A DNA stretch of 64,000 bases from Chloroflexota bacterium (lineage in GTDB: Bacteria > Chloroflexota > Dehalococcoidia > Bin125): positions 2,352 through 66,351 of the forward strand of contig JAPPJZ010000061.1 of assembly GCA_028874365.1 (NCBI GenBank), given 5' to 3'. Shown here piece after piece: positions 48,677 through 64,000 of the stretch. The notes below the pieces were generated by a model, which worked only from the letters and a program-made list of their open reading frames with translations, did not search any database and was not told the DNA's origin. Position numbers and translations under genes: made by a program. Position 1 is the stretch's first letter. Every line of letters starts with the position of its first letter.

Positions 48677-49449
48677 AAATCACGACCTGGAACGTGAACT
48701 CGATCCGGGCGCGCGAAGACCGCGTGCTCAACTGGCTTGACCAGCACCAGCCCGACGTGCTCTGTCTTCAGGAGCTCAAGTGCACCGAGGAGCAGTTTCC
48801 GTTCGACGGATTCGACGCGCTCGGCTACAACGTCGTGTTGTATGGCCAGAAGTCGTACAACGGCGTAGCGATCGTCTCGCTCGATTACCCGGATTGGGTC
48901 GAGGAAGCAGTGCCGTGGCCCGAGGACGAGCAATCGCGCGGTATCGCGGCCGAGGTCAACGGCGTGCGCGTCGTCAGTCTCTACTGCCCCAACGGCCGCG
49001 AGGTCGGTCACGAGATGTATCAGTACAAGCTGGAGTGGTTCGACCGCCTGCGATCATGGCTCGACGGACAGGATCAGTCCGGCGATCTCGTGTTGACCGG
49101 CGACTACAACATCACCTTTGACGATCGCGACGTGAACGATCCGGAATTCTGGCACGAGCGGATACTGTGTTCGACGCCCGAGCGGGATCGGCTCAATGCT
49201 CTCGTTGACTGGGGCCTGACGGACGCGCTGCGCCTATTCGACGAATCGGCTGGTGTGTACACCTGGTGGGACTATCGCACCGGCGGAGTGCAGCAGGACA
49301 AGGGATTGCGCATCGACCACCACTTGATCAGCGAACCATTGGTCGAACGTGCGGTGGCGGTCGAGATCGATGTCGAGGAGCGTCAGATGGAGGGCGACGG
49401 CGACAAACCGTCCGATCACGCGCCGGTCACACTTGTGCTAGAGGACTAG
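48673..49449 (+). CDS. xth: Exodeoxyribonuclease III
   Basis: MKITTWNVNSIRAREDRVLNWL...DVLCLQELK, C-terminal DHAPV; GTGA overlap with the upstream stop. Confidence 0.9.
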   Translation: MKITTWNVNSIRAREDRVLNWLDQHQPDVLCLQELKCTEEQFPFDGFDALGYNVVLYGQKSYNGVAIVSLDYPDWVEEAVPWPEDEQSRGIAAEVNGVRVVSLYCPNGREVGHEMYQYKLEWFDRLRSWLDGQDQSGDLVLTGDYNITFDDRDVNDPEFWHERILCSTPERDRLNALVDWGLTDALRLFDESAGVYTWWDYRTGGVQQDKGLRIDHHLISEPLVERAVAVEIDVEERQMEGDGDKPSDHAPVTLVLED

Positions 49450-50842
49450 CGTCGTTGAGACCTGCCTCTTCCAACACGGCCGCGCAGCGGATGACCGTGG
49501 CGTCGTTACCCTCGCGGGCCACGAGCTGTACCGACACGGGAAGGCCGTCAGCGTCCAGGCCGGCCGGCATTGCGATCGCCGGGGCCTGAATCAGGTTGGC
49601 CAGCGGCGTGTAGAGAATCGAGATCGTCCAGGGCGTGACGGACTTGCCCGCAATCTCGTCGATCACCGCGCCGTGTTGGTGGGCCGCGATGGCGCTGGTC
49701 GGAGTCAGCAGCACGTCGAAGTTGTCGAACCACGCGTCCATCGCTCGACTGAGCCGATCGAGCGCCGCATAGGCTTCGGCGACGCGGACGCCGGTCAATG
49801 AGCGTCCCCGTTTCAAACTGCCGAGCGTGTAGTCATTCAGCTCCTCTTCGCGGCCCACGCACATCTCGCCGTAGTTGGCTGCCGCTCCAACGGCAGAGAG
49901 CGTCGGAAAGATCTCATTCGGATCCGAGATCGGCGGTGACGCGGCAGACACTGAAGCGCCGGCTTCGCGCAGCATCGCTGCCGCCACCTCGACACGGCTC
50001 GCGATCAGCGGTTCACACGGCGTCGGCCAGCCCAGCTCGGTCGTGAGTCCGACCTGCAGTCCTTCGAGGCTCCCTGGTCTCGAGACCTCGCTCAACCGGC
50101 CGCTGGCCGCACGAGAGGCCACCGGGTCATCCGGGTGCGGTCCTGCCATCACATCGTGCATCAGCGCGATATCGCCAACTGTTCGCGCCAAGACGCCGTC
50201 GGTGGAAATCTGTGACATGCCCGCGCCGCGGGTTCGGCGTGGAATCCTCCGACCGCTCGGCTTGAATCCGATCACGCCGCAATAGGCGGCGGGCACTCGG
50301 GCTGAGCCGCCACCGTCGGTGCCGTGATGCAGCGGTCCGAAGCCGGCCGCGCACGCCGCTGCGGCTCCGCCGCTCGAACCGCCGGCGGTCCGCTCGAGGT
50401 TCCACGGATTCGCCGTCGGTGGGCCCAACCGATTCGTGGTCTGCGCCGCCAGCCCAAACTCGGACGTATTGGTCTTGCCGAGGAAGAGGGCGCCTGCGTC
50501 CCTCAGCCGTTCGACAAACAACTCGTCGCGCTGTGCCGGCTGGTGGTCAGCGACCAGCGATCCCATCGTTGTTGGAACGCGCTGAACGTCGACAAGATCC
50601 TTGATGGTGATCGGAATGCCAAGCAGAGGCGGTTGGTTCCCATCTCGCAAGCTCCACTGTCGAGCGGCAGCGTGTGCCTGCACGAGCGCAGCATCCCGGG
50701 TCTGACTGATGAACGCATTCAGCGATAGCTCAAGCGCTTCGATGCGCTCGAAGATCGCCTCGACGACCTCCTCCGGCGTAAAGGTTCGAGCCTCGTACCC
50801 GGCTCGCAGCTCTCGGGCCGAGAGTTCGTGAATCTCGGCCAT
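49427..50842 (-). CDS. Amidase (amidase-signature family)
   Basis: Ser-cis-Ser-Lys context GGSSGGAAAACAAGFGPLHHGTDGGGSARVPAAYCG; 471 aa. Confidence 0.85.
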   Translation of the reverse strand: MAEIHELSARELRAGYEARTFTPEEVVEAIFERIEALELSLNAFISQTRDAALVQAHAAARQWSLRDGNQPPLLGIPITIKDLVDVQRVPTTMGSLVADHQPAQRDELFVERLRDAGALFLGKTNTSEFGLAAQTTNRLGPPTANPWNLERTAGGSSGGAAAACAAGFGPLHHGTDGGGSARVPAAYCGVIGFKPSGRRIPRRTRGAGMSQISTDGVLARTVGDIALMHDVMAGPHPDDPVASRAASGRLSEVSRPGSLEGLQVGLTTELGWPTPCEPLIASRVEVAAAMLREAGASVSAASPPISDPNEIFPTLSAVGAAANYGEMCVGREEELNDYTLGSLKRGRSLTGVRVAEAYAALDRLSRAMDAWFDNFDVLLTPTSAIAAHQHGAVIDEIAGKSVTPWTISILYTPLANLIQAPAIAMPAGLDADGLPVSVQLVAREGNDATVIRCAAVLEEAGLNDASPLAQV

Positions 50843-52903: not shown

Positions 52904-55786
52904 TTGGCCGAACACACTCGACCATCGGCGCGCACCACGATTGAAGCGGCTCAACGAGCCAGCAGTGACCGACGTCTGGTCGATGCCCCGCTGGCTGCAG
53001 ACGTGCGCTTGCTGAGCAGCCAACTGGGGAACACGATTCGCCGGGTTGACGGTGACGAAGTCTTCAACGCCGTCGAGGAACTGAGAGGCCTAGCCCAACG
53101 GCGTCGCGGCGTACGGCAGGAGCCCGAACCCCAGCTCACGGCTGAGATCGCCAAGCTGGTGAAAAGCTGGCCGCTGTGGTTGGCTGCCGAGGTCGGCAAT
53201 GCCTTCCTGACCTACTTCCTGCTCACGAACACGGCAGAAGAGACTCACCGCATTCGGCGTCGACGGCTGCGATCTTCAAACTCGCACGCGGCGCCTCGAT
53301 CGATACCAGCGGTCGTGGAGCAGCTACTTTCGCAAGGCGTCAACGAGGAGACCATTCGCGCCCAGGCATCGGGCATACACCTGCAACCGGTCTTCACCGC
53401 CCATCCGACCGAATCCCAGCGACTCACTATGCTTGGCACGCTGCAAGACGTGCATCAGCTGCTGCTGGAGCGTGAACGGGCGATTCCCTCGGAGTTGGAT
53501 GAGATCGATTCAGCCCTGCGCATGCACATTGAGGGGCTCTGGCAGGCGGATCACCTGCGCTACCGGAGGCCGACCGTGCTCGAAGAGTCACGCCTGTTGC
53601 TGCGGACGTTCGAGACCACGCTCTGGGAGGCCGTCCCTGATGTCACCCGTCGCTTCCGCCGAGCCACCGGCGTGCAACCCGAGGACGCACCGGCGCCGAT
53701 CGTGCTTGGTTCGTGGATGGGCGGTGACGCCGACGGCAATCCCAACGTCACGCCGGATTTGACCTGGCAGACCGCACTGACGATGCGGGCAACAGTGCTG
53801 CGATTGCACCTGGGCGCGGTTCGCGCCATGGATTCGATGCTGCCCCACTCCGTACGGCGAGTCGCGGCCTCTTCCCGGCTGGAAGATTCATTGCAACGCG
53901 ACGCCAGGCGGATGCCGCGCGTGCATGACCGTCTCGAGCGCCGCAACGCGGCGGAGCGCTATCGACACAAGATCCGTTACATGGCGGCTCGTCTGCAGGC
54001 GACGCTCGAGGCCGACTATGCGCTGCTCGATACGCGCGCGGCAAGCATCCACGACTCGAGATTGACCACGACGGAGCCGGACGGCGTACCGTACGACTCG
54101 GTCGGCGATTATATCGATGACCTGGACGCGATCGCTGAGAGCCTGCGACTGCACGGCGCAGACTCCGGGGCCGAGACGGTCGTGCAGCCGCTGATCGATC
54201 GGGCGAAGTCATTCGGGTTCCACCTCGCAACGCTCGACATCCGCGACCACGCCGCGCAGTTCCACGCCGCGGCCGATGAGGTGCTGAAGGGGCTCGACAT
54301 TCAGCCGCCCGGCGGCAGCTACCTGGAGCTGAGTCCGGACCAGCAGGAGGAGTTTCTCGCTAGTGAGCTCGATCGGGACTACTTCCCGGTCGGTCACGCG
54401 ATATCGACACACGACGACGACACGCTGCGCCGGTTCCGCACGGCGCGACGCATTCAGCGCATCTGCGGCGCGGACGCCGTCCAGACCTGCATCGTCTCGA
54501 TGGCCTCGACGGCGGCCGACGTCCTCGCGCCGGTGCTGGTCGCCAGACAGGCAGGCCTCAACGACATCGGGCTTCGCGCGCCCGGAGGCGGCATACGTAT
54601 CGCGCCGCTGTTCGAGCGTGTCGCCGACCTCGATCGAGCACCAGCTGTGCTGCGCTCACTGTTCGGACACGGCGCCTATCGACGCCACCTGAAGGCGCAC
54701 GGCGACCTGCAGGAGGTGATGGTCGGGTATTCGGACTCGGCCAAGGACGCCGGTGTGTTGCCCTCGCTCTGGGGCCTGTATCGCGCCCAGGACGCCATGC
54801 ACGAAGTAGCCCGCGAGGCGGGCGTTGACTTGATGTTCTTCCACGGTCGAGGCGGGACGGTCAGCCGCGGCGGTGGACCGTCGCACGACGCGATTCTCGC
54901 GCTGCCCCCGCACACGACAGAAGGCGGAATCAAGTTCACCGAACAGGGCGAGATGATCCAGTTCACCTACGGCATGCCGGGATTGGCGAAGTGGAACCTG
55001 GAGCAGACGGTAGCGGCAACGTTGGTGAAACGGTTCGACCGCGACCACGATGACGCACCCGACGCCGACAGGGGACGCTACCACGAAGCGATGGAGGAAC
55101 TGGCCGAGACGGCCGAGCGAGCGTACCGGTCGGAAGTCGTGGACAATCCGGACCTTCACGCGTACTTCCAGCGCGTGACGCCGATCGGCATGCTGGGCAA
55201 TCTGGCGATCGGCTCGCGTCCGACGTTCCGTCCCGGTACGGACGCCAGCCTGACATCGCTGCGAGCGATTCCCTGGGTATTCGCATGGATGCAGACGCGG
55301 CACGTGATTACGGGCTGGTTGGGTGTGGGCGCCGCGCTCGAGCAGTTCGTCGAGCGTCATGGCGCATCGGGAGAGGCGCTGTTGAAGGACATGCGCTCGC
55401 GCTGGCCATTCTTCACCACGCTGCTCTCGAATGTGGAGATGGTCCTGGCCAAGGCCGACTTCGATGTCGCCGAGCACTATGCCGCCACGCTCGGAGACGG
55501 GGACCACGATTTGCGCACGTTCCGAGGTCTGCGCGATGAGTACCAGCGCACGGTCAGAATGATCAACCGGCTAGCGGAGCAGGACCGGCTGCTGGACAAG
55601 TCGCCGGTGCTGCAACGCTCTATCGCCCTGCGTAACCCCTACGTCGACGCGTTGAGTTTCCTGCAGGTCGAACTGCTGAACCGCATCCGCGATCTGCCAG
55701 AGGACGATCCGGAGTACTCGGAGACGCTGGAGGCGATCCTGCGCAGCGTCAACGGGGTCGCAGCGGGATTGCGCAACACCGGCTAG
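52904..55786 (+). CDS. ppc: Phosphoenolpyruvate carboxylase
   Basis: VFTAHPTE, GSWMGGDADGNPNVT, FHGRGGTVSRGGGP and the C-terminal ...NTG. TTG 52904 chosen (GGAGGA 5 nt upstream; no in-frame ATG for >100 codons); the ORF track starts at 52805 and would overlap the divergent peptidase. Confidence 0.9.
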   Translation: MAEHTRPSARTTIEAAQRASSDRRLVDAPLAADVRLLSSQLGNTIRRVDGDEVFNAVEELRGLAQRRRGVRQEPEPQLTAEIAKLVKSWPLWLAAEVGNAFLTYFLLTNTAEETHRIRRRRLRSSNSHAAPRSIPAVVEQLLSQGVNEETIRAQASGIHLQPVFTAHPTESQRLTMLGTLQDVHQLLLERERAIPSELDEIDSALRMHIEGLWQADHLRYRRPTVLEESRLLLRTFETTLWEAVPDVTRRFRRATGVQPEDAPAPIVLGSWMGGDADGNPNVTPDLTWQTALTMRATVLRLHLGAVRAMDSMLPHSVRRVAASSRLEDSLQRDARRMPRVHDRLERRNAAERYRHKIRYMAARLQATLEADYALLDTRAASIHDSRLTTTEPDGVPYDSVGDYIDDLDAIAESLRLHGADSGAETVVQPLIDRAKSFGFHLATLDIRDHAAQFHAAADEVLKGLDIQPPGGSYLELSPDQQEEFLASELDRDYFPVGHAISTHDDDTLRRFRTARRIQRICGADAVQTCIVSMASTAADVLAPVLVARQAGLNDIGLRAPGGGIRIAPLFERVADLDRAPAVLRSLFGHGAYRRHLKAHGDLQEVMVGYSDSAKDAGVLPSLWGLYRAQDAMHEVAREAGVDLMFFHGRGGTVSRGGGPSHDAILALPPHTTEGGIKFTEQGEMIQFTYGMPGLAKWNLEQTVAATLVKRFDRDHDDAPDADRGRYHEAMEELAETAERAYRSEVVDNPDLHAYFQRVTPIGMLGNLAIGSRPTFRPGTDASLTSLRAIPWVFAWMQTRHVITGWLGVGAALEQFVERHGASGEALLKDMRSRWPFFTTLLSNVEMVLAKADFDVAEHYAATLGDGDHDLRTFRGLRDEYQRTVRMINRLAEQDRLLDKSPVLQRSIALRNPYVDALSFLQVELLNRIRDLPEDDPEYSETLEAILRSVNGVAAGLRNTG

Positions 55787-55796
55787 GCGCCGGGCT

Positions 55797-56255
55797 CTAG
55801 TCGACGACTTCCCAGTGGACGAGGGTGAACGGGTCGATCTCGTCGTTTCCCTCGTGGTCCTCGAAATAGGGCCGAACTTTGGCGCCGATCTCGACCGTCT
55901 GCATCGGGTCGCCGACGAGATTGCCGACCATGCGCACGTTCTCGTGATTGGGCAGCTCGACCAGCACAACCAGGTACGGACAAGAATCTTGCAACGCCGG
56001 ATGCACCGGATGCCAGACGCGCTCCCACGAGTAGATGCGTCCGTTGCCCTCGACCGACTTCCAGCCGAGGTCGAACGAGTGGCAACGGTGGCAATTCCAC
56101 TCGGGACCGAACTGCGGCCGATCGCAGGTGTTGCAGTTCTGGACAAGCAACTCGTGCCGCTTGACCGCTTCCCAGTACTCGGTGTCGAGGCCATCAATCG
56201 CCGGAGCGGGCGCGGGCATGCCCTCGCCCAGGTAGTAGGGTCCGGGATTCGCCAT
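55797..56255 (-). CDS. DUF35-family protein (Zn-ribbon + OB-fold; partner of SCP-x thiolases)
   Basis: CxxC...CxxC ribbon (CNTCDRPQFGPEWNCHRCHS) then OB-fold. ATG 56255 overlaps the thiolase TAA (TAATG). Confidence 0.75.
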   Translation of the reverse strand: MANPGPYYLGEGMPAPAPAIDGLDTEYWEAVKRHELLVQNCNTCDRPQFGPEWNCHRCHSFDLGWKSVEGNGRIYSWERVWHPVHPALQDSCPYLVVLVELPNHENVRMVGNLVGDPMQTVEIGAKVRPYFEDHEGNDEIDPFTLVHWEVVD

Positions 56256-57436
56256 TAGAGCACCGCCTCGGAACCGACGATCATGTCGGACACCGGCGTC
56301 ACCATCGGACCCGACGCGACCAGCGACACATTCACATCGTCGACCTGGTTGCAGGACTCGCCGCGCACCTGGCGCACGGCCTCGATGTTCAGTTCCAGAC
56401 CGTGCATGTAGCACTCGGCGAGGTTGCCGCCGCTGGTGTTGATCGGCATCTTGCCGCTCGGCGCGACCAGGTTGTCGAAGGTGATGAACTCGTTGGCCTC
56501 TTCGTAGGTGGTCAGGCCGTGTTCGATGATGCTCATCACGACCCCGCCAGTGAAGTTCTCGTAGACCTGAGCAACGTCGACCTCCTCCGGCTTGACCTGC
56601 GCCATGTCGTACATGCGCGGCGCAACCGTCTTGAAGTTAGAGGTGGCGTAGTCGGTCGCGTTATGCGAGCCGGAACCGGCGCGGTTGCCCGAGCCGACCG
56701 CGCCGCCGAGGAAGTAGACCGGCGTCTTGGCGTAGTCCTTGGCCCGGTCGGCCGAGACGAAGATCATCGCCGCGGCGCCGTCGTTCTCCTGGCAGCAGTC
56801 GAACAGGTGGAACGGCTCGACGATCCAGCGCGAGGCGTCATAGTCCTCGGGCGTCAGCGGACGACCGTACATCACGGCACGCGGATTGTTCTGTGCGTGG
56901 TGATACGAGGCTAGGGAGCATGCCTTGAGCGTGTCCTGGGTAATGCCGTGGTCCTCGTACAGTCGGTGAATCCGCATGGCAAACGACTGCGCCGGCGACA
57001 TCAGTCCGTATGGCGCCGTGTAGGCCTGGTCGCCGCGCACGTGCGGTACGCGAGCGCCCTGCCCGAAGCGTCCGAACTGTCCCTGCGCCAGACCTCGGAA
57101 GACGACTACGGTGTCGGCGAGGCCAGTGGCCACCGCCGACGCCGCGTGAGCGCAGGCCGCCGAGCCGCCGCCGCCACCGCCGCCCCACTCCATGTTGGAG
57201 AAGCGCAGGTCCTTGATGTCGAGCGCCGCGGCGATCCGCGACGGATCGTTGCGGTCGTTGGAGTACGAGGCAAAGCCATCGATCTCACGCGGGTCGATTC
57301 CCGCATCGGCGCTGGCCTTGAGAATCGCCTCGATCACGAGCTTAAACTCCGGATCCGGAGAGCGACCGCGCTTGTAGTAGGTCGTTTCACCGACGCCGAT
57401 GATCGCCACTTCGCCGCGCATCGTGCGGTTACCCAT
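56255..57436 (-). CDS. Thiolase-like protein, SCP-x / nonspecific lipid-transfer-protein thiolase type
   Basis: GEVAIIGVGETTYYKRGRS..., glycine-rich NMEWGGGGGGGSAACAHAA; 393 aa; no N-terminal CoA-acetyltransferase Cys motif of biosynthetic thiolases. Confidence 0.8.
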   Translation of the reverse strand: MGNRTMRGEVAIIGVGETTYYKRGRSPDPEFKLVIEAILKASADAGIDPREIDGFASYSNDRNDPSRIAAALDIKDLRFSNMEWGGGGGGGSAACAHAASAVATGLADTVVVFRGLAQGQFGRFGQGARVPHVRGDQAYTAPYGLMSPAQSFAMRIHRLYEDHGITQDTLKACSLASYHHAQNNPRAVMYGRPLTPEDYDASRWIVEPFHLFDCCQENDGAAAMIFVSADRAKDYAKTPVYFLGGAVGSGNRAGSGSHNATDYATSNFKTVAPRMYDMAQVKPEEVDVAQVYENFTGGVVMSIIEHGLTTYEEANEFITFDNLVAPSGKMPINTSGGNLAECYMHGLELNIEAVRQVRGESCNQVDDVNVSLVASGPMVTPVSDMIVGSEAVL

Positions 57437-57564
57437 CTGACTGTCCTTCCCTGCGCACCTCTAGCGGATGCGCATCGACTGTTGGACGAACCCGTGATCG
57501 AAACTGCGGGCCTTCGCGCGCAGTTTACTTGATGATCGAACCTCGACCGTACGTCAGCCGCCGG

Positions 57565-60042
57565 TTATTGCAGCGCGCCTGCGACCAGTGCGTCAGCGAT
57601 CTCATCTTCGGGCACCGACAGGATTTCGGAGAGCACGTAGTGAGTGTGCTCGCCAATCGCCGGCGCGGCCCGCCGCAGACGCGCCGTCCCGTCCGAGAAC
57701 CGGGTGACGAGGCCGTCGTACGGCGTCGGCCCCATGACCGAGTGGTCGAGCGTGACGAAGAAATCCCGATGCGTGAGCTGGGGATCCTCGTACAGGTCCG
57801 ACGGCCATTCAACGATCGACGCGGGCACACCGGCAGCGATGAGCACGCCAACGACGGCATCCGCTGTCTGAGGCGCGCACCATTCGGCAACCGCCGCCTC
57901 GATCTCGGCCTTGGCCGCGATCCGCGTTGACAGGTCGTCGTACTCGCTGCCGGACCAGTTCTCAAGGCCCGCCGCGTCGCGAAGGGCGTGCCACTGTTCG
58001 GCCGTTTCTGTCGCGATCGCCACGTAGCGTTCCTCGTCACCGACTCGGAACACGCCGTTGGGCGCCGCGTAGAGCGAGCCATGGCCTGGAGCATCGGCGA
58101 CACGGCCGTTCTCGAAATAGTCGAGCAGCAGCGGCGCGTTGAAGTGGATTCCCGCCTCGGTCTGCGCCAGGTCGATGTATTGCCCTTTGCCCGTCATGTC
58201 TCGATAGCGGATCGCCGCGGCCAGCGTGCCGGATCCGAATCGAGGGTTGATGAAGTCGGTGTACGCGCCCCAGGTGCCGGCTGGCTGTCGGTCCGGCCAT
58301 CCGGTGATCCGGTGCAAGCCGGACAGGCAGGCGCCCTGTAACCCGAATCCTGCATAGCTCGACTCAGGACCCCACTGTCCGCGCAAACAGGTGCTGAGCA
58401 TGATGATCTCAGGACGTTCCTCGCTCAGCGTCGCGTAGTCGAGACCGAAGCGCTTCAGCGTGCCGGGCGTGAATGACTCCACGACCACGTCGGCCCAGTC
58501 GACTAGTTGTCTGGCATAGGACAATCCCTGCTCGGTGTCGAGCCGGAGCGCGACACCGAGTTTGGACGAGTTGAAGTTGGCCATGAACTGAGCACGGTCG
58601 AGCCCTGGTTGGTTGTCCTTGAACGGCGGCGCCAGACGCAGCACGTCGGGACGCGTCGCCGACTCGATATGCACCACCGTCGCACCGTGATCGGCCATCG
58701 ACTTTGAGATCAGCGGGCCAACGCCGACCCAGGCGAAGTCGGCGATCTTGACGCCGGAGAGCGCGCCACCGTCGTGGCCGCGCACGCCGTTGGAGGACGC
58801 TGGCGTCCGTGCGGTTCGCTTCGGTGCGCGCCTGACGTCGGACAGCAGGTGCTGATCTTGTCCCATCGCCGGAGCGGGCCGAGCCAGCTGCAACGGCGTC
58901 TCCGATAGCTTGGCAAATGGGCCGGGATAGCGCTTGCCGTCCAGCTCCACCCAGTAGTCCCGCGCTTCCAGGTGCTTGTCGCGGGCGATGTCCTCGACCG
59001 TGTACAGCGGCGCGAGCATGAAGCCGTCCTTCACGGCTCGCGCATAGCATTCGGCCATCGTCCGCTTGGCTACGAAGTTGTGCAGGACTTCATTGGCGAC
59101 CGCCATCATTCTGCCCGCTTCTGCCGGATCCTCCATCGCAGCGCGACCGAGGGCGGCCGCCCATTCATCGATGTCGGCGCCTTCCAGCTCACCGCTCAAC
59201 TCGCCGCTCTCCCCGATCCACTTCATCACTTTGGTCGAGTGGCGCAGACCCAGTCCGCCGGGCACGATGCTGAACGTGACGTAGCCGTCCGCGCACGGAT
59301 GGATTGGGAACACGGCGGGCCCTTCCAACACACCGACCGCTCGGTCGGCGCAGGTGCCGGGCGGATCTCCGCCCGTGTTGGGTGGGAACCCGGTCGCGTG
59401 CATCAGGGTCCAGACGATCGCCGCCTGCATTGAGACGTCGAGGTGTTGCCCCCTTCCGGACAGGTCACGCTCACGTAGGGCGATCGCGGTATCCGCCGCC
59501 GCCTGCACGCCGGAGTGAATGGCTGCCTGTGGATATCCCACCGGTATCGGCGGTCTGTCGCCTTCGCCCTGCAACCCGACCAGTCCGCCGGCGGACTCGA
59601 TCGTCAACTCCGTCGCCGGACGGTTGGCCCACGGTCCATCCTGCCCATAGGGCGTGACCGAGACGTAAATCAGATCGGGATGCTCTGCCTTGACCTCGTT
59701 GTAGCTCAATCCCCAGTCGGCCATGGTCCCCGGATCGAACGACTCGATCAGGACGTCGGCGGTGCCGAGCAGGGCTCGGAAGTCGGCGCGACCCTGTTCG
59801 TCGTCGAGGTCGATAATCACGCTGCGCTTGCCCAGTCCCATGGCGGCCCAGTAGAGGGAACGCCCTGGATCCTGTTCGCTGAACGGGGGCATCTCACGCG
59901 ACGGCGTTCCCCAGGGCGGCTCAACCTTGATCACCTCGGCGCCCATGTCGGCAAGCACACGGCCGGCCATCTCGGCCCGTGAGGTCGCCAGGTCAATCAC
60001 GCGCACTCCGCCCAGCAGGGTGTTCGACGCCTCACTTGTCAT
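57565..60042 (-). CDS. Fused tandem double family-III CoA-transferase (two CaiB/BaiF-type domains in one 825-aa chain)
   Basis: Domain 1: GVRVIDLATSRAEMAGRVLADMGAEVIKVEPP...ADVLIESFDPGTMADWGL. Domain 2: LSGVKIADFAWVGVGPLISKSMADHGATVVHIES...ADVVVESFTPGTLKRFGL. ATG 60042 chosen because GGAG lies 8 nt upstream. Confidence 0.8.
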   Translation of the reverse strand: MTSEASNTLLGGVRVIDLATSRAEMAGRVLADMGAEVIKVEPPWGTPSREMPPFSEQDPGRSLYWAAMGLGKRSVIIDLDDEQGRADFRALLGTADVLIESFDPGTMADWGLSYNEVKAEHPDLIYVSVTPYGQDGPWANRPATELTIESAGGLVGLQGEGDRPPIPVGYPQAAIHSGVQAAADTAIALRERDLSGRGQHLDVSMQAAIVWTLMHATGFPPNTGGDPPGTCADRAVGVLEGPAVFPIHPCADGYVTFSIVPGGLGLRHSTKVMKWIGESGELSGELEGADIDEWAAALGRAAMEDPAEAGRMMAVANEVLHNFVAKRTMAECYARAVKDGFMLAPLYTVEDIARDKHLEARDYWVELDGKRYPGPFAKLSETPLQLARPAPAMGQDQHLLSDVRRAPKRTARTPASSNGVRGHDGGALSGVKIADFAWVGVGPLISKSMADHGATVVHIESATRPDVLRLAPPFKDNQPGLDRAQFMANFNSSKLGVALRLDTEQGLSYARQLVDWADVVVESFTPGTLKRFGLDYATLSEERPEIIMLSTCLRGQWGPESSYAGFGLQGACLSGLHRITGWPDRQPAGTWGAYTDFINPRFGSGTLAAAIRYRDMTGKGQYIDLAQTEAGIHFNAPLLLDYFENGRVADAPGHGSLYAAPNGVFRVGDEERYVAIATETAEQWHALRDAAGLENWSGSEYDDLSTRIAAKAEIEAAVAEWCAPQTADAVVGVLIAAGVPASIVEWPSDLYEDPQLTHRDFFVTLDHSVMGPTPYDGLVTRFSDGTARLRRAAPAIGEHTHYVLSEILSVPEDEIADALVAGALQ

Positions 60043-60150
60043 TTCGATGCTCCGATCTGGAAACTCTGTCCGATCCGACCGACATGCCAAACTCACCTGC
60101 GCCGTTCGCAGGGATTCCCAGCAAGATACCGAAGGTCGCGGGTTTGCGGT

Positions 60151-60381
60151 CTACAGGACCAGGAACATCCTGATCAGGACCGAGAACACGCCGAAGACCA
60201 GCAGCGCGGCGAGAATCCACCAGAGCAATCGAGGCGCATCCTCGCGCGGCTCGTCCGCCCGATTCTCATGGTCGATCCAGTGAGCATGGCGCTCGGGAGG
60301 TGGTCGACGGCGACGCGCCCCGGGCGAGTCCGGCGCGGGCGGCGGCCAAGCGTCTCCGCCGTTGCGCGGGGCTTCCGCCAT
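60151..60381 (-). CDS. Candidate small tail-anchored membrane protein (76 aa; Pro/Arg-rich N-terminus, single C-terminal TM)
   Basis: GGAG 7 nt upstream of ATG 60381. Strongly coding-like GC3. TM helix LLWWILAALLVFGVFSVLIRMFLVL. No homologs recognised. Confidence 0.35.
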   Translation of the reverse strand: MAEAPRNGGDAWPPPAPDSPGARRRRPPPERHAHWIDHENRADEPREDAPRLLWWILAALLVFGVFSVLIRMFLVL

Positions 60382-60524
60382 CTCAGGCTCCTTGCTCGAG
60401 GCATCCTCGATCGGTGATGCCAGTCTAGTCAGCCCTGTCCCGGCAGGGAGAAGGCTCATTCCTGCGCGTAATCAGAGCTGCGACTAGCCTTTGGTTGAGC
60501 AGAAATCAGGAACCGGAGTCTCCC

Positions 60525-61406
60525 GTGGCCCGCATCCTCGTCACTTCCACGCTCGCCCGAGACGGCAAGTCGGTTGTTGCCGCCGGGCTCGGGGCTGCGC
60601 TGCGAGCAACTGGCGCGACTGTCAGACTCGCGCGAGTGGACGATGGGGATTCCGCCGCATCCGACGCGCGTCAGTTCTCGCGAGTCAACGGCGTTCGCGC
60701 GACGTCTGAGCCGGTCTCTGCTTCCGACATCCCGAATGACACTGACCACGTTGTGATTGAGGCAGCCTCAGCCGAGGGCGTCGACGCCGATCGAACCTTG
60801 CTCGTCGTTCGACACGGCGAAGCCGACGACGACACCGTCGCTCGGGCGCTGTCCGAGACCCAACCCGACGCTGTGGTCGTGAATGGCGTCCCGGAACACG
60901 GCGGACCCGCGGCGATGGCCCGGATTGCCGAACTGGGTGGGACCGACATCGCCGCCGTTCCTCAGGATCGACACCTCGCCGCGCCCACCGTGCGCGATAT
61001 CGCTCCCGCCGTGGAGGGCGAGCTTTCAGGCGATGAAGACCTGTTTGATGAGGCCGCTCGGGACCTTGTGATCGGTCCGGTCAGCGCACACGAGGGCATG
61101 GATTACTTCCGCAAGTACCCGGACAAGACCCTGGTCACGCGCCATGACCGGATCGACATCGCGCTCGGCGCGCTGGACTACGAGTCGCTTTGTCTGATCC
61201 TCGCCGGTGGCGAGCCAACCTTGCCGTACGTTGCGCAGCGCGCCGAACGTGAGTCGTTTGCCCTGATCACCACGTCGCAGAGCACGCTGCAAGCGGTCGA
61301 ATCGATTGGGCCGCTGTACGGCAACTCCGCGTTCGTCGGTGAGCGGAAGCTGGCCACTGCGATCGAAATCGTCTCGGCCAACGTCTCAACTCAGGCGCTC
61401 ACCTAG
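60525..61406 (+). CDS. Stand-alone Pta-N-terminal-like protein (BioD-like P-loop-less domain + DRTGG domain)
   Basis: ARILVTSTLARDGKSVVAAGLGAALRATG resembles the Pta N-terminal domain. C-terminal LVTRHDRIDIALGALDYESLCLILAGG matches the DRTGG-type region. GTG 60525 with GGAG 9 nt upstream; TTG 60495 also possible. Confidence 0.55.
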   Translation: MARILVTSTLARDGKSVVAAGLGAALRATGATVRLARVDDGDSAASDARQFSRVNGVRATSEPVSASDIPNDTDHVVIEAASAEGVDADRTLLVVRHGEADDDTVARALSETQPDAVVVNGVPEHGGPAAMARIAELGGTDIAAVPQDRHLAAPTVRDIAPAVEGELSGDEDLFDEAARDLVIGPVSAHEGMDYFRKYPDKTLVTRHDRIDIALGALDYESLCLILAGGEPTLPYVAQRAERESFALITTSQSTLQAVESIGPLYGNSAFVGERKLATAIEIVSANVSTQALT

Positions 61407-62065
61407 AGCTTCCTCAACAAGGTCAGCCCGTCACCGACCGTCAGTTGGACGGAGTCGACGCGCCGATCATCAGTGACGCGTCGGTTGAACGCATCGATTG
61501 CGCGGGTATCAGGATCGCTGGCGTTGCGATCCACGACCTCTCCGCCCCACAGCGTGTTGTCGACAACGATGAGTCCTCCATCGCGCAGCAACGCCAGCAC
61601 GCCCTCGAAGTAGCTCCAGATCGGTTCCTTGTCGGCGTCGATGAATGCGAAGTCGAAGAGGCCGGCTCCCTCGCGACGCAACTGCGCGAGGGTGTCGAGC
61701 GCCGGACCCAGCCTGAGATCGATCTTGTGACGAACGCCGGCTTCGGACCAGTAGCGGCGCGCAATCGATGTCCACTCATCGCTCAGATCACAGGCGACGA
61801 GCCGACCGTCTTCAGGCAGCGCCTGCGCCACAGCCAGCGCCGATGCACCGGTGAACGTGCCGATCTCCAGGGCGCGACGCGCCCCACTCAGCCGAGCAAG
61901 CCAGCCAAGCAGACGAGCCTGATCGGCACCGATCTGCATTCCGCCGGCGGATAATCTCGATGTCTCTGCGCGGAGTCGGCTCCAGACATCGTCCTCTCTG
62001 GTGGATGCCTCTTCGATGTACTGGGCGAGCTCAGCGGTGACGGATACGGTCCTGATCGAGGTCAT
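61403..62065 (-). CDS. Class I SAM-dependent O-methyltransferase, family 3 (caffeoyl-CoA OMT-like)
   Basis: LEIGTFTGASALAVAQALPEDGRLVACDL, FDFAFIDADKE, GGLIVVDNTLWGG. Confidence 0.85.
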   Translation of the reverse strand: MTSIRTVSVTAELAQYIEEASTREDDVWSRLRAETSRLSAGGMQIGADQARLLGWLARLSGARRALEIGTFTGASALAVAQALPEDGRLVACDLSDEWTSIARRYWSEAGVRHKIDLRLGPALDTLAQLRREGAGLFDFAFIDADKEPIWSYFEGVLALLRDGGLIVVDNTLWGGEVVDRNASDPDTRAIDAFNRRVTDDRRVDSVQLTVGDGLTLLRKL

Positions 62066-62193
62066 GGCTGAACCTTACCTGCATGGGAGAAACGTTCCGG
62101 GGAATCTTGCCCCTTGCGAGATTGCCCATAACACTATGCAAACAGTCGAGAGTGTATGTGGCGACGACCACCAAGCGTGAATCGAGGGGGAAT

Positions 62194-62511
62194 ATGGCAG
62201 ACGCGAAGCCTAAGACGAAGGCGCAGATGGCGAAGGCGATCGAAGCGAAGACGGATATCGCGAGCAGAGATGTGAATGAGGTGCTCGACGCCCTCGCCGA
62301 AGTTGTGTTGGAAGACCTGGCGGTCGGTGGTCCTGGCTCCGTCACTGTCGCAGGGCTGCTCAAAGTCGATATCGTCGCCCAGACGGCCCGCCCGGAGCGC
62401 GAAGGCCGCAATCCCGCTACCGGCGAGACCATCACCATTGCGGCGCGACCCGCACTCGATCGCGGCAAGGTTCGCGTGCGCGCGCTGAAGCGCCTGCGCG
62501 ACGTTCTTTAG
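62194..62511 (+). CDS. hup: HU-family nucleoid-associated protein with short Lys-rich N-terminal extension
   Basis: KAQMAKAIEAKTDIASRDVNEVLDALAEVVLE...RNPATGETITIAARPA (HU arm). GAGGGGG RBS before ATG 62194. Confidence 0.85.
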   Translation: MADAKPKTKAQMAKAIEAKTDIASRDVNEVLDALAEVVLEDLAVGGPGSVTVAGLLKVDIVAQTARPEREGRNPATGETITIAARPALDRGKVRVRALKRLRDVL

Positions 62512-62531
62512 TCCATCTACACGAGCCCACG

Positions 62532-63725
62532 ATGCCGCCGCTTCCGCCAACGCATGAGGCCGGGCGGGAGCTGATCGAGCGGCTGACGCCGCACGCCGAG
62601 TTACTGTCGGAACAGGCAGAGGCGCGCGATCGCGACGCCGGATTCCCATTCGTGTCGTTCGATCTCTTGCGCGAGATCGGCTGGATCGCCGCTCCGATTC
62701 CACGCGAGTACGGCGGCGGCGAGTGTTCGTTGGCCGACCTCGTCGCTGCCCAGACCGCGTTAGCCAAGATCGACATGGCACTCGCCTTCTCCTGCGGCAT
62801 GCACCTGATGTCGGTCGGTTCCGAGCGTTCGAACCGCAACTGGCCCGCACAGATCCGTGAGCGCATTTTTCGCTCCGTCGTCCAGGAAGGCGCACTCTGC
62901 AATCAGGTTGCATCGGAACCGGAGCTCGGCTCGCCGCAGGGCGGCGGACGACCGAAAACGGCATTGACGCCAGACGGACCGGGTCGCTGGCGGATCAATG
63001 GGCGTAAATCGTTCACCACGCTCGCGCCCGACCTGACCTGGTTCCTTACCTATTGCGCGCTTGAGGATGGCTCGGGCATGCTCGCCCGGGTCGCTGTTCA
63101 CCGGGACTCGCCGGGTTTGCGCATTGAGGAGACCTGGGACGTCGTCGGGCTGCGCTCGACGGGCTCGCACGACGTCTGGTACGACAACGTCGCGATCACC
63201 GACGACGAGTTCCTGGTCAAGCAGGATCCGGGCCGGGCCGGGCAACGGCACGGTGACTTCGCCTGGTTCGCGCTGCTCGTTTCAGCGGCATCCCTCGGGG
63301 TTGCCGAGGCAGCACGCGACTACACCGTCCACTTTGCACGCCATCGCCGCCCCGGCGGCGCTCCCGGCGTGATCGGCAGCCTGCCGACCGTACGCGCGCA
63401 GGTCGGGGAGATCGATCTGCGAATCATGACTGCACGCGCCTTACTGCACGAAACCGCGTCGGCCTGGGACACGCTCGACGTCGAGTCAAGGGGCAGTCTT
63501 GGGCCGCGCGTCGCAGCAGCGAAACTGCACACCGGCGACACCGCTGTCGACATCGTCGATCGCTGTATGCGCCTGGTCGGCGGAATCTCGCTGCACCGTT
63601 CCGAGCCGCTGGAGCGCTACTACCGAGATGTCCGGGGACCGCTGCACAACCCGCCGATTACGCCGCGCGGACTCGAAGTGATTGCCTCCGCGGCGCTCGA
63701 TCCGCTGCCCGAATCTACTTCTTGA
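62532..63725 (+). CDS. Acyl-CoA dehydrogenase-family protein
   Basis: Three-domain ACAD layout; C-terminal ...RCMRLVGGISLHRSEPLERYYRDVR. Confidence 0.8.
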   Translation: MPPLPPTHEAGRELIERLTPHAELLSEQAEARDRDAGFPFVSFDLLREIGWIAAPIPREYGGGECSLADLVAAQTALAKIDMALAFSCGMHLMSVGSERSNRNWPAQIRERIFRSVVQEGALCNQVASEPELGSPQGGGRPKTALTPDGPGRWRINGRKSFTTLAPDLTWFLTYCALEDGSGMLARVAVHRDSPGLRIEETWDVVGLRSTGSHDVWYDNVAITDDEFLVKQDPGRAGQRHGDFAWFALLVSAASLGVAEAARDYTVHFARHRRPGGAPGVIGSLPTVRAQVGEIDLRIMTARALLHETASAWDTLDVESRGSLGPRVAAAKLHTGDTAVDIVDRCMRLVGGISLHRSEPLERYYRDVRGPLHNPPITPRGLEVIASAALDPLPESTS

Positions 63726-64000
63726 ACGTCGTTTGGAGCCGTCGCGCGACGGCCACGCGATCGTGATCGACACTCCCCAATCCGAGCTGCAGCCAACGGA
63801 GTTCCCTGGCCCAGCGTTCGAGGGGAAGGTCGGCCGAACCGCCAGCGGCACCGTGCAGCGACATCGCGCGATCGACCACTTCGACGGCCGCGCTCTTCGC
63901 GAACGCGGTCGCCTCCAAGCCAAGCGCTTCGAGCTGATTGGATCCCTCGAGGTAGAGGGCTCGCGACGCGGAGACGGCGATCTCGTTGTCGGCGAGCGCG
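63715..64000 (-). CDS. Acyl-CoA dehydrogenase, C-terminal part (gene continues beyond window end)
   Basis: The frame is open to position 64000. It reads ...ALADNEIAVSASRALYLEGSNQLEALGLEATAFAKSAAVEVVDRAMSLHGAAGGSADLPLERWARELRWLQL, an ACAD C-terminal helical domain. Confidence 0.6.
   Translation of the reverse strand, partial: ALADNEIAVSASRALYLEGSNQLEALGLEATAFAKSAAVEVVDRAMSLHGAAGGSADLPLERWARELRWLQLGLGSVDHDRVAVARRLQTTFKK

Follow-up and report, generated by a model that had tools for sequence, protein, structure and literature searches.

A thiolase-fold, Cys-less protein and its free-standing DUF35 partner in a Dehalococcoidia-related genome: a candidate Ltp2-type retro-aldolase for a non-steroid 3-hydroxyacyl-CoA

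Introduction

To date, the characterised retro-aldolases that combine the fold of a thiolase with a DUF35 partner all belong to steroid catabolism, namely Ltp2 and Sal, with AedK known by genetics. Here we describe a related gene pair in a 64,000-nucleotide (nt) stretch of the Chloroflexota contig JAPPJZ010000061.1 (assembly GCA_028874365.1; G+C of the stretch 64.6%), which we call the window and whose positions serve as coordinates throughout. The pair lies on the minus strand and consists of a gene for a thiolase-fold, Cys-less, Ltp2-like aldolase (56255..57436, −; 393 amino acids (aa) from an ATG; Pfam Thiolase_C_1, 4.4e-26) and a free-standing DUF35 gene (55797..56255, −; 152 aa from an ATG; Pfam zf-ChsH2 and OB_ChsH2_C). 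From gene anatomy, fold, residue pattern and co-conservation, we think it fairly probable that the pair is an Ltp2-type retro-aldolase with a zinc-ribbon/OB-fold partner and that it cleaves a non-steroid 3-hydroxyacyl-coenzyme A (CoA).

The closest described system is the Ltp2-ChsH2(DUF35) aldolase of Thermomonospora curvata (6ok1) and M. tuberculosis (Rv3540c/Rv3542c), with which the window pair shares a Gly where thiolases have their nucleophilic Cys, the two catalytic tyrosines, a DCCQE stretch and a Cys4 DUF35. In the T. curvata enzyme (TcLtp2), Tyr294 is the catalytic base, Tyr344 is the catalytic acid and His296 contributes to the oxyanion hole, while thiolysis is excluded by the Gly that occupies the position of the nucleophile (PMC12329534). 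The differences are that the DUF35 of this system forms the C-terminal part of a MaoC hydratase subunit whereas that of the window is free-standing, that its motif reads YDHF and that of the window YENF, and that its steroid-catabolic context is absent at the window locus. The bile-acid aldolase Sal-Shy(DUF35) of Comamonas testosteroni (9myr) is likewise a Cys-less thiolase-fold aldolase that needs a DUF35 protein, and it keeps the first motif Tyr. The Shy DUF35 matches that of the window slightly better than the ChsH2 DUF35 does, but its zinc site is Cys3His1 rather than Cys4, and Sal itself (98.8 bits) carries Tyr302 and Cys304 (YDCY) and has a Gln at the column of the second Tyr of Ltp2 and the window aldolase. 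The architecture described for 6ok1 and 9myr is an aldolase dimer flanked by two DUF35 subunits, with the zinc ribbon shaping the substrate cleft (PMC12329534).

Three further systems share parts of this arrangement. AedK of actinobacterial oestrogen degradation, a homologue of Ltp2 (43% to the M. tuberculosis protein) proposed to act as a retro-aldolase outside sterol side chains, is an example of this type of enzyme being put to use on other CoA esters; its partner AedL differs from the window protein in being a MaoC-DUF35 fusion in a steroid ring-degradation cluster (AedK and AedL were compared by description only). The BbsAB and BbsEF proteins resemble the window locus in placing DUF35 and thiolase-fold subunits beside a CoA-transferase of two different family III modules. 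However, BbsB is a true Cys thiolase (58.6 bits), the CoA-transferase modules of the window are fused in one chain, and the Bbs proteins serve anaerobic toluene degradation, which is not the organism or context of the window. In the complex of thiolase, hydroxymethylglutaryl (HMG)-CoA synthase and DUF35, the DUF35 protein also binds a thiolase-fold dimer, but this system needs a Cys nucleophile, absent in the window aldolase, and an HMG-CoA synthase, of which none was found nearby.

Results

Compared by sequence with solved structures, the aldolase matched TcLtp2 (6ok1_A) far ahead of any other chain (1.9e-71, 244 bits), followed by the uncharacterised 4u4e (147 bits) and C. testosteroni Sal (CtSal; 9myr_A, 99 bits), while archaeal thiolases (94 and 75 bits), BbsB (59 bits) and the SCP2 thiolases and PhlC (~52-55 bits) gave weaker matches. 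An AlphaFold2 model of the protein (predicted local distance difference test (pLDDT) 77.9; predicted template modelling (TM) score 0.84) was used as a Foldseek query and again retrieved 6ok1 first (E = 2.5e-35, TM 0.81-0.83), with a ranking like that obtained by sequence and only thiolase-fold proteins among the top matches.

Residue conservation was assessed by aligning 121 family members and the sequences extracted from the PDB alignments. In the DUF35-dependent true thiolases 6esq and 7yvy, the nucleophilic Cys aligns with Gly88 of the window protein, which lies within an invariant W-G-G-G-G-G-G run, and TcLtp2 and CtSal likewise have a Gly in this column. Where thiolases have their H-D-C-F motif, the window aldolase reads Y292-E-N-F, TcLtp2 reads Y294-D-H-F and CtSal reads Y-D-C-Y. 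Tyr294 and Tyr344 of TcLtp2 align with Tyr292 and Tyr343, respectively, and Gly88, Tyr292, Asn294 and Tyr343 are each invariant among the members (121/121). Cys342, directly beside Tyr343, is likewise invariant and has no equivalent in TcLtp2. Because the nucleophile column holds a Gly and both Ltp2 tyrosines are kept, the protein is predicted to carry the catalytic pair of an Ltp2-type enzyme and to be unable to act as a thiolase; with no nucleophilic Cys, no acyl-enzyme should form. A sequence-only reading of this locus had named the gene an SCP-x-type thiolase and called for a check of the catalytic Cys, His and Tyr. The fold was borne out by Pfam and Foldseek, whereas the word thiolase is a misnomer for a protein in which the Cys has become Gly88 and the His of Ltp2 has become Asn294, with both tyrosines retained. 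Public databases label the protein "acetyl-CoA acetyltransferase", a label that, judged by this residue pattern, is wrong.

The DUF35 protein is composed of a Cys4 rubredoxin-like zinc ribbon (Cys41, 44, 55 and 58) and an OB fold, and its best PDB matches are chains of the same two aldolase complexes, 9myr_B (1.2e-17) and 6ok1_B (1.8e-16), with the archaeal DUF35 weaker at 6.2e-5. All four cysteines are invariant in 73/73 orthologues. The two genes meet in a TAATG stop/start overlap, a translational coupling junction (56253..56257, −; CATTA on the plus strand), in which base 56255 is common to the TAA of the aldolase and the ATG of the DUF35 gene, and the latter is preceded by a GAGG 10 nt upstream. 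The coordinates of the pair and the single shared base had been read correctly before.

We compared 80 genome loci with a relative of the aldolase, 60 of which make up a more distant set. They were taken from Dehalococcoidia and other Chloroflexota, Pseudomonadales (Porticoccaceae and Azotimanducaceae), Myxococcota, Alphaproteobacteria, Acidimicrobiales and Acidobacteriota. Seventy-nine of the 80 carry a DUF35 gene, and in the sole exception (L004) the contig breaks off at the stop codon of the aldolase gene. Of the 79 evaluable loci, which represent at least six phyla, 78 have the DUF35 gene directly after the aldolase gene; in the remaining one (L037) it lies 4.3 kb downstream. Within the 78, the stop and start share one base (TAATG or TGATG) in 26 and four bases (ATGA or GTGA) in 41, giving an overlap in at least 67/78, and most of the others are artefacts of start-codon calling. 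A lack of co-conservation of the DUF35 gene in relatives, which the sequence-only reading had named as part of what would refute it, is contradicted by the presence of the gene in 79/80 loci. The adjacency and overlap of the genes and the invariant Cys4 site link aldolase and DUF35 at the genetic level, and the two proteins are predicted to be physical partners.

The window aldolase nevertheless stands apart from Ltp2 proper. Its global identity to TcLtp2 is 37%, and against the NCBIfam model of the Ltp2 subfamily (NF005892, cutoff 469) it scores 355.3 bits, compared with 709.9 bits for TcLtp2. In an exhaustive search of 1.84 billion cluster representatives, the family was reduced to two full-length clusters at the 50% level (62-65% identity, 567-587 bits), after which there is a gap down to identities of at most 48% (386 bits). 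Nearly all of the ~90 nearest full-length representatives have the nucleophile-column Gly and the first and second Tyr, while the third motif position varies among H, N, A, C and S; to judge from these residues, a large Cys-less "Ltp2-like" radiation exists. The YENF motif is not exclusive to the window clade, as it also occurs in some closer relatives of TcLtp2 (P0201 and P0207). In a neighbour-joining tree rooted on two true thiolases, which is indicative only and was built without bootstrap, the window clade and the TcLtp2 clade form separate branches of the Cys-less radiation, with Sal and 4u4e more basal. Neither in this tree nor in the search of representatives did the protein group with the acetoacetyl-CoA thiolases, a placement that the sequence-only reading had named as the other part of what would refute it. 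The clade has at least 593 matches in species-representative genomes, and the identity of the aldolase stays at 65-72% among members from Chloroflexota, Pseudomonadales, Myxococcota, Alphaproteobacteria, Acidimicrobiia and Acidobacteriota.

Taken in the strict sense, Ltp2 would be expected to pass the hidden Markov model (HMM) cutoff, to have the YDHF motif and to be accompanied by a MaoC-fused DUF35 in an igr-like steroid operon (ChsE1/E2, ChsH1/H2), and the window pair shows none of the three. What it does show are the features of an Ltp2-type aldolase in the broad sense, i.e., an SCP-x-like fold, the replacement of Cys by Gly, both tyrosines and, at the genetic level, a DUF35 partner. The features of DUF35-dependent true thiolases and acyltransferases (BbsAB, the archaeal acetoacetyl-CoA thiolase and PhlC-type enzymes) are lacking, with neither the Cys nor the HDCF motif in the protein and no partner gene nearby. 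On these sequence features, we suggest that the window aldolase should not be annotated as Ltp2, still less as an acetyl-CoA acetyltransferase.

When the open reading frames (ORFs) of the 60 distant loci were clustered, only the aldolase and DUF35 genes proved to be universal, and the recurrent neighbours were lineage-specific. A divergently transcribed, 278-aa double hot-dog hydratase of the MaoC/MFE-2 type, with 3khp and human MFE-2 hydratase 2 as best PDB matches, was found in 23 of these loci, mostly from Pseudomonadales and other Gammaproteobacteria, and lies less than 1 kb from the pair in 21. The MaoC hydratases that the earlier reading had proposed looking for are present by the pair in 23/60 distant loci and absent from the window. 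In two gammaproteobacterial loci, a TacA/GNAT (TacT-like) toxin-antitoxin pair lies between the MaoC hydratase and aldolase genes (L083:8896-9682 and L084:9073-9859).

A second recurrent neighbour is a ~400-aa PF04909-type protein encoded directly beside the pair on the same strand in ~13-17 distant loci (Alphaproteobacteria, Myxococcota, Acidimicrobiales and a few Gammaproteobacteria). Its closest solved relative is PtmU3 (6omp_A, 5.8e-64), followed by DitZ, and it is not of the hydrolase type. All 15/15 copies (e.g., L039:8745-9995, L051:11741-12946 and L047:320-1558) contain the D-x-P-H-x-D/E signature, a mark of amidohydrolase-related dinuclear oxygenases (PMC13154177), and by its sequence this "amidohydrolase_2" neighbour is predicted to be a PtmU3/DitZ-like dinuclear oxygenase. 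According to the Ambrox paper, which cites Dong et al. 2019, PtmU3 introduces a hydroxyl at a decalin carbon in a diterpenoid acid and so prepares A-ring cleavage. For the related loci, as distinct from the window, the pairing of a PtmU3-like oxygenase with a retro-aldolase suggests, as a speculative reading, a hydroxylate-then-cleave cassette for acids with a non-desaturable alpha-carbon. The substrate of PtmU3 is reportedly a CoA ester, hydroxylated at the carbon beta to the thioester.

Family III CoA-transferases and other genes of acyl-CoA metabolism accompany the pair in several further loci. In L026, a metagenome-assembled genome (MAG) of TK10 Chloroflexi, an acyl-CoA dehydrogenase (ACAD), a family III CoA-transferase, the aldolase, DUF35, a crotonase and two family I CoA-transferase-like subunits are encoded together. 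The last two (L026:12493-14168; 290 and 264 aa) are weak matches without an NCBIfam assignment and resemble ring-opening IpdAB-type enzymes. L024 has a CoA-transferase, aldolase, DUF35 and crotonase, and L068 a two-domain CoA-transferase, hydrolase, TetR regulator, ACAD, aldolase and DUF35. A family III CoA-transferase is also found near the pair in the Acidimicrobiales locus L076 and in several Alphaproteobacteria, and in L085 the pair occurs without relevant neighbours. The beta-oxidation-like or retro-aldol module envisaged in the sequence-only reading thus holds for the family, in the ACAD-CoA-transferase-aldolase-DUF35-crotonase operons of distant Chloroflexota, but its ACAD part does not hold at the window. 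The recurrent partners all make a 3-hydroxyacyl-CoA or supply its precursor CoA ester and therefore fit the needs of a retro-aldolase.

An amidase-signature gene lies a few kb from the pair in the window (49427-50842, −), in the Dehalococcoidia clade and in ~10 Pseudomonadales loci, with 27-32% mutual identity. The Pseudomonadales loci include L048 (L048:971-2365), L052, L056, L059, L060, L062, L067 and L077, where it is found with a GlcD-like flavin adenine dinucleotide (FAD) oxidase and a Zn-dependent alcohol dehydrogenase. This proximity could be due to chance or could hint at an amide-containing substrate.

Directly upstream of the aldolase in the window is a two-domain family III CoA-transferase (57565..60096, −), an 843-aa ORF from a GTG with two Pfam CoA_transf_3 stretches; the likely start is the ATG at 60042, which is preceded at 7 nt by GGAG and would make the protein 825 aa long. 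The C-terminal half has as its best match the benzylsuccinate CoA-transferase subunit BbsF (9fn0_B, 1.1e-64), and the N-terminal half matches 4ed9 and BbsE (9fn0_A; ~1e-38 to 1e-42 by query). At the catalytic-Asp column of 4ed9/YfdE, the N-terminal half has Ala192 and its 20 orthologues have Ala, Ser or Gly, whereas the C-terminal half has Asp614, kept in 20/20 orthologues. By sequence, then, the protein looks like a BbsE-BbsF-type fusion. Family III CoA-transferases are interlocked dimers, and the simplest reading of the fusion is a covalent pseudo-heterodimer that has a single active site. Its best NCBIfam similarities, all sub-threshold, are to succinate-glutarate and succinyl-CoA:mesaconate CoA-transferases, and this likeness to dicarboxylate transferases is a weak hint at the substrate class. 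The same combination of two CoA_transf_3 domains with the catalytic Asp solely in the C-terminal one is found in PtmU4, a two-domain type III architecture with more than 2,400 homologues (PMC6006322). PtmU4 differs in that it makes thiocarboxylic acids together with the PtmA3 ligase and sulfur-carrier proteins, and no PtmA3-like ligase or sulfur-carrier gene is among the annotated neighbours of the window pair.

The two-domain CoA-transferase is directly upstream of the pair, on the same strand, in 21/21 close relatives (L001-L021). In the window, the 128-bp spacer (57437..57564, −) between it and the aldolase contains two elements that stand out in an alignment of ten orthologous Dehalococcoidia spacers of 60-190 bp. 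One is a TAnAnT box (TAAACT, 57527-57522, −) in which T54, A55, A57 and T59 are invariant or nearly so, and the other is a conserved Shine-Dalgarno sequence, GGGAAGGA (~57455-57445, −), before the aldolase ATG; the spacers are otherwise divergent. A scan of 55400-62600 for sigma-70 consensus promoters found none, and a terminator scan of the same region gave one irrelevant terminator-like site and nothing between the CoA-transferase and aldolase genes. A search of Rfam with 55000-62600, at a permissive threshold, produced no match. The TAnAnT box may be the -10 element of a promoter type missed by the sigma-70 scan, and the pair may therefore have a promoter of its own besides any read-through. 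For this reason, the conserved box lowers our confidence in a functional link to the CoA-transferase without removing it. Of the "double CoA-transferase" in the sequence-only reading, the two domains are real, whereas the linkage is found only within the close Dehalococcoidia clade and is qualified by the possible promoter.

Upstream of the CoA-transferase there is a small ORF (60151..60459, −) without a Pfam match and with a hydrophobic C-terminus. Its conservation in relatives is limited to the hydrophobic C-terminal ~42 residues (LLWWILAALLVFGVFSVLIRMFLVL), and it may encode a small membrane protein. The ORF at 60456-60749 is probably a shadow of a DRTGG-domain gene. Three unrelated genes, namely this DRTGG-domain gene (+), an O-methyltransferase (−) and an HU-like gene (+), separate the aldolase operon from an ACAD family gene (62532..63725, +; 397 aa with Pfam ACAD domains), which is context and lies outside the operon. 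The top NCBIfam matches of this gene are SfnB and FadE16, both far under their cutoffs, and its synteny is confined to close relatives. Of a second ACAD gene, which converges on the first and overlaps the latter's stop region, only the last 95 codons are in the window (63715..64000, −; tblastn: 63999-63715, 65% identity), the start lying beyond it. Its counterpart in the relative L001 comes after a family III CoA-transferase of the single-domain kind (Pfam of L001:1329-2543 and L001:2413-3723), so that the region holds several CoA-transferase and ACAD paralogues. Paralogue expansions of this type are reported for SAR202-type Chloroflexota. The two ACAD genes reported by the sequence-only reading are thus present, but they are only loosely linked to the pair and do not belong to its operon, as they lie on different strands, beyond three unrelated genes, with the second mostly outside the window.

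On the other side of the pair, a phosphoenolpyruvate (PEP) carboxylase gene (+) converges on the DUF35 gene across a 10-bp gap. The stop codons end at 55786 (+) and 55797 (−), and the intervening 55787-55796 is too short for separate terminators. Past the PEP carboxylase are genes for an S9 peptidase, an amidase, a luciferase-like monooxygenase, a cyclase, a fumarase, a malate dehydrogenase, an aconitase and a carboxyltransferase. The gene for an identical aldolase protein is found in GCA_026707265.1, on one contig of this MAG from a sponge metagenome, and the nearest genomes are Dehalococcoidia/Chloroflexota MAGs at 88-98% identity. Searching the window with the neighbour genes of the other loci found no MaoC, crotonase, PtmU3-like oxygenase, FAD oxidase or Zn-dependent alcohol dehydrogenase; the only matches were to the CoA-transferase, the amidase and, weakly, the ACAD. 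No paralogue of the aldolase-DUF35 pair was found within the window. Among the annotated genes adjacent to the pair there is no 3-hydroxyacyl-CoA dehydrogenase, and among its annotated neighbours no HMG-CoA synthase or PhlA-type subunit. The steroid genes ChsH1/ChsH2, ChsE, Ksh, KstD and Hsa were absent from the surrounding 25 kb and from the inspected distant loci.

Discussion

From the genes and residues described above, we infer complex formation, the chemistry and a link to the CoA-transferase as follows. The stop/start overlap would couple translation and yield equal amounts of aldolase and DUF35 protein, which would assemble as in 6ok1 and 9myr, with two DUF35 subunits stabilising the aldolase dimer and shaping the substrate cleft. 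On binding of a 3-hydroxyacyl-CoA, Tyr292 would take the proton from the 3-hydroxyl, the C2-C3 bond would break, the resulting thioester enolate would be stabilised by Asn294 and backbone amides, and Tyr343 would protonate it. The products would be an aldehyde or ketone and acetyl-CoA, propionyl-CoA or another short acyl-CoA. Such a retro-aldol route would be required where ordinary beta-oxidation is blocked, for example at a tertiary alcohol, at a branch point or at a carbon within a ring. A steroid side chain is very unlikely as the substrate. In the window genome the substrate is probably supplied by the adjacent CoA-transferase, the sole dedicated partner, which would load CoA onto a free (3-hydroxy) acid, with the released acyl-CoA possibly reused as donor; alternatively, hydratase and dehydrogenase steps may be encoded elsewhere in the genome. 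An analogue is the two-subunit family III succinyl-CoA:malate CoA-transferase that works with malyl-CoA lyase in Chloroflexus. We regard the functional linkage of the pair to the CoA-transferase as moderate and that to the ACADs as weak.

Several observations weigh against this interpretation. The clade is biochemically uncharacterised, and although NF005892 is the best NCBIfam family of the aldolase, the score is well under the curated cutoff. The motif is YENF rather than the YDHF of Ltp2, with the oxyanion-hole His replaced by Asn, and the AlphaFold2 model falls below a pLDDT of 50 exactly at the active-site loops (residues 203-216 and 336-344), where its geometry is unreliable. The search of the window revealed no hydratase and no oxygenase homologue that would make a 3-hydroxyacyl-CoA. 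The association with the CoA-transferase is not conserved beyond Chloroflexota, and the conserved TAnAnT box in the 128-bp spacer suggests independent transcription of the pair.

Four alternatives were weighed. A true DUF35-dependent thiolase, similar to BbsAB or the archaeal acetoacetyl-CoA thiolase, would act on a 3-ketoacyl-CoA and complete beta-oxidation together with the ACADs. The thiolase fold and DUF35 partner common to BbsAB and the archaeal complex, the benzylsuccinate CoA-transferase subunits (from the same pathway as BbsAB) as best matches of the CoA-transferase halves and the database name "acetyl-CoA acetyltransferase" all point that way. Against them stand the Gly in the nucleophile column of 121/121 members and YENF in place of HDCF, scores of 58.6 bits for BbsB and 74.7 bits for the archaeal thiolase against 244 bits for Ltp2, and the lack of an adjacent 3-hydroxyacyl-CoA dehydrogenase gene. 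We rejected this reading on the Cys-less column, the YENF motif and the low BbsB and archaeal scores and consider it most improbable. Of the two precedents offered by the sequence-only reading, the thiolase-HMG-CoA synthase-DUF35 complex fails, as the protein has neither a nucleophilic Cys nor the HDCF motif and no gene for an HMG-CoA synthase is nearby, and the Ltp2-ChsH2(DUF35)-type retro-aldolase is favoured by the 6ok1 and Sal-Shy chains as best matches and by Gly88, Tyr292 and Tyr343. The pair might instead be an Ltp2 orthologue of a sponge symbiont that removes the C17 propionyl side chain of host sterols, given that Ltp2 is the closest characterised protein, that both of its tyrosines are kept and that the identical protein comes from a sponge-metagenome MAG. 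The 37% identity and different clade, the NF005892 score (355 bits against a cutoff of 469 and 710 for TcLtp2), a DUF35 that is not fused to a ChsH2-type MaoC subunit and the lack of steroid genes in the surrounding 25 kb or the inspected distant loci make this improbable, and it was rejected on clade, HMM score, DUF35 form and gene context.

It is less easy to set aside a Cys-less scaffold with a different role, whether another CoA-ester reaction (decarboxylation, biosynthetic aldol condensation or isomerisation) or a non-catalytic one. In an uncharacterised clade, a motif with Asn for His and Glu for Asp, the invariant Cys342 that TcLtp2 lacks and the frequent occurrence of the pair without catabolic neighbours, e.g., in L085, would all be compatible with this, and the function of TbSLP, a Cys-less relative for which weak decarboxylation has been reported, is itself unresolved. 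Yet the recurrent neighbours produce 3-hydroxyacyl-CoAs, as suits a retro-aldol step, and the 65-72% identity across phyla with all active-site columns invariant speaks against a pseudo-enzyme; on balance, we find such a role unlikely. The remaining alternative concerns the CoA-transferase, which might be a PtmU4-like thioacid enzyme or belong to another pathway, its adjacency being no more than lineage-specific synteny. The double version is adjacent only in L001-L021, most distant loci have no CoA-transferase at all, the 128-bp spacer carries a conserved promoter-like box and PtmU4 has an equal two-domain, C-terminal-Asp architecture. On the other hand, family III members recur by the pair in L024, L026, L068, L076 and several Alphaproteobacteria, no PtmA3-like ligase or sulfur-carrier genes are nearby and no terminator was detected in between. 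We lean against this alternative but regard it as the most credible of the four.

An Ltp2-type retro-aldolase for non-steroid CoA esters is not a new mechanism, as a role for Ltp2 homologues beyond sterol side-chain cleavage has already been proposed with AedK. The added interest lies in the breadth and conservation of the clade, in its marine and sponge-associated distribution and in the repeated occurrence of PtmU3-like oxygenases beside the pair. The spread of the clade over many marine and sponge-associated phyla, in a non-steroid context, indicates that the chemistry is used for other CoA esters. The lineage-dependent partners (hydratases, PtmU3-like oxygenases and CoA-transferases) provide testable guesses at the substrates and possibly a handle on the cleavage of recalcitrant branched and alicyclic acids. 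More speculatively, and we would give this little weight at present, the clade could serve heterotrophs of the sea and of sponges as a general "last-resort" C-C lyase that opens or shortens CoA-activated alicyclic, terpenoid and branched acids at tertiary or quaternary carbons, paired with whichever enzyme installs the 3-hydroxyl, be it a PtmU3-like oxygenase or a MaoC or crotonase hydratase, or with a CoA-transferase acting on a pre-formed 3-hydroxy acid. If so, these proteins would supply the retro-aldolase that is missing from "hydroxylate-then-retro-aldol" routes of ring opening, for instance those proposed for Ambrox-type terpenoids, and they would be candidate enzymes with which Dehalococcoidia-related Chloroflexota break down carboxyl-rich alicyclic dissolved organic matter.

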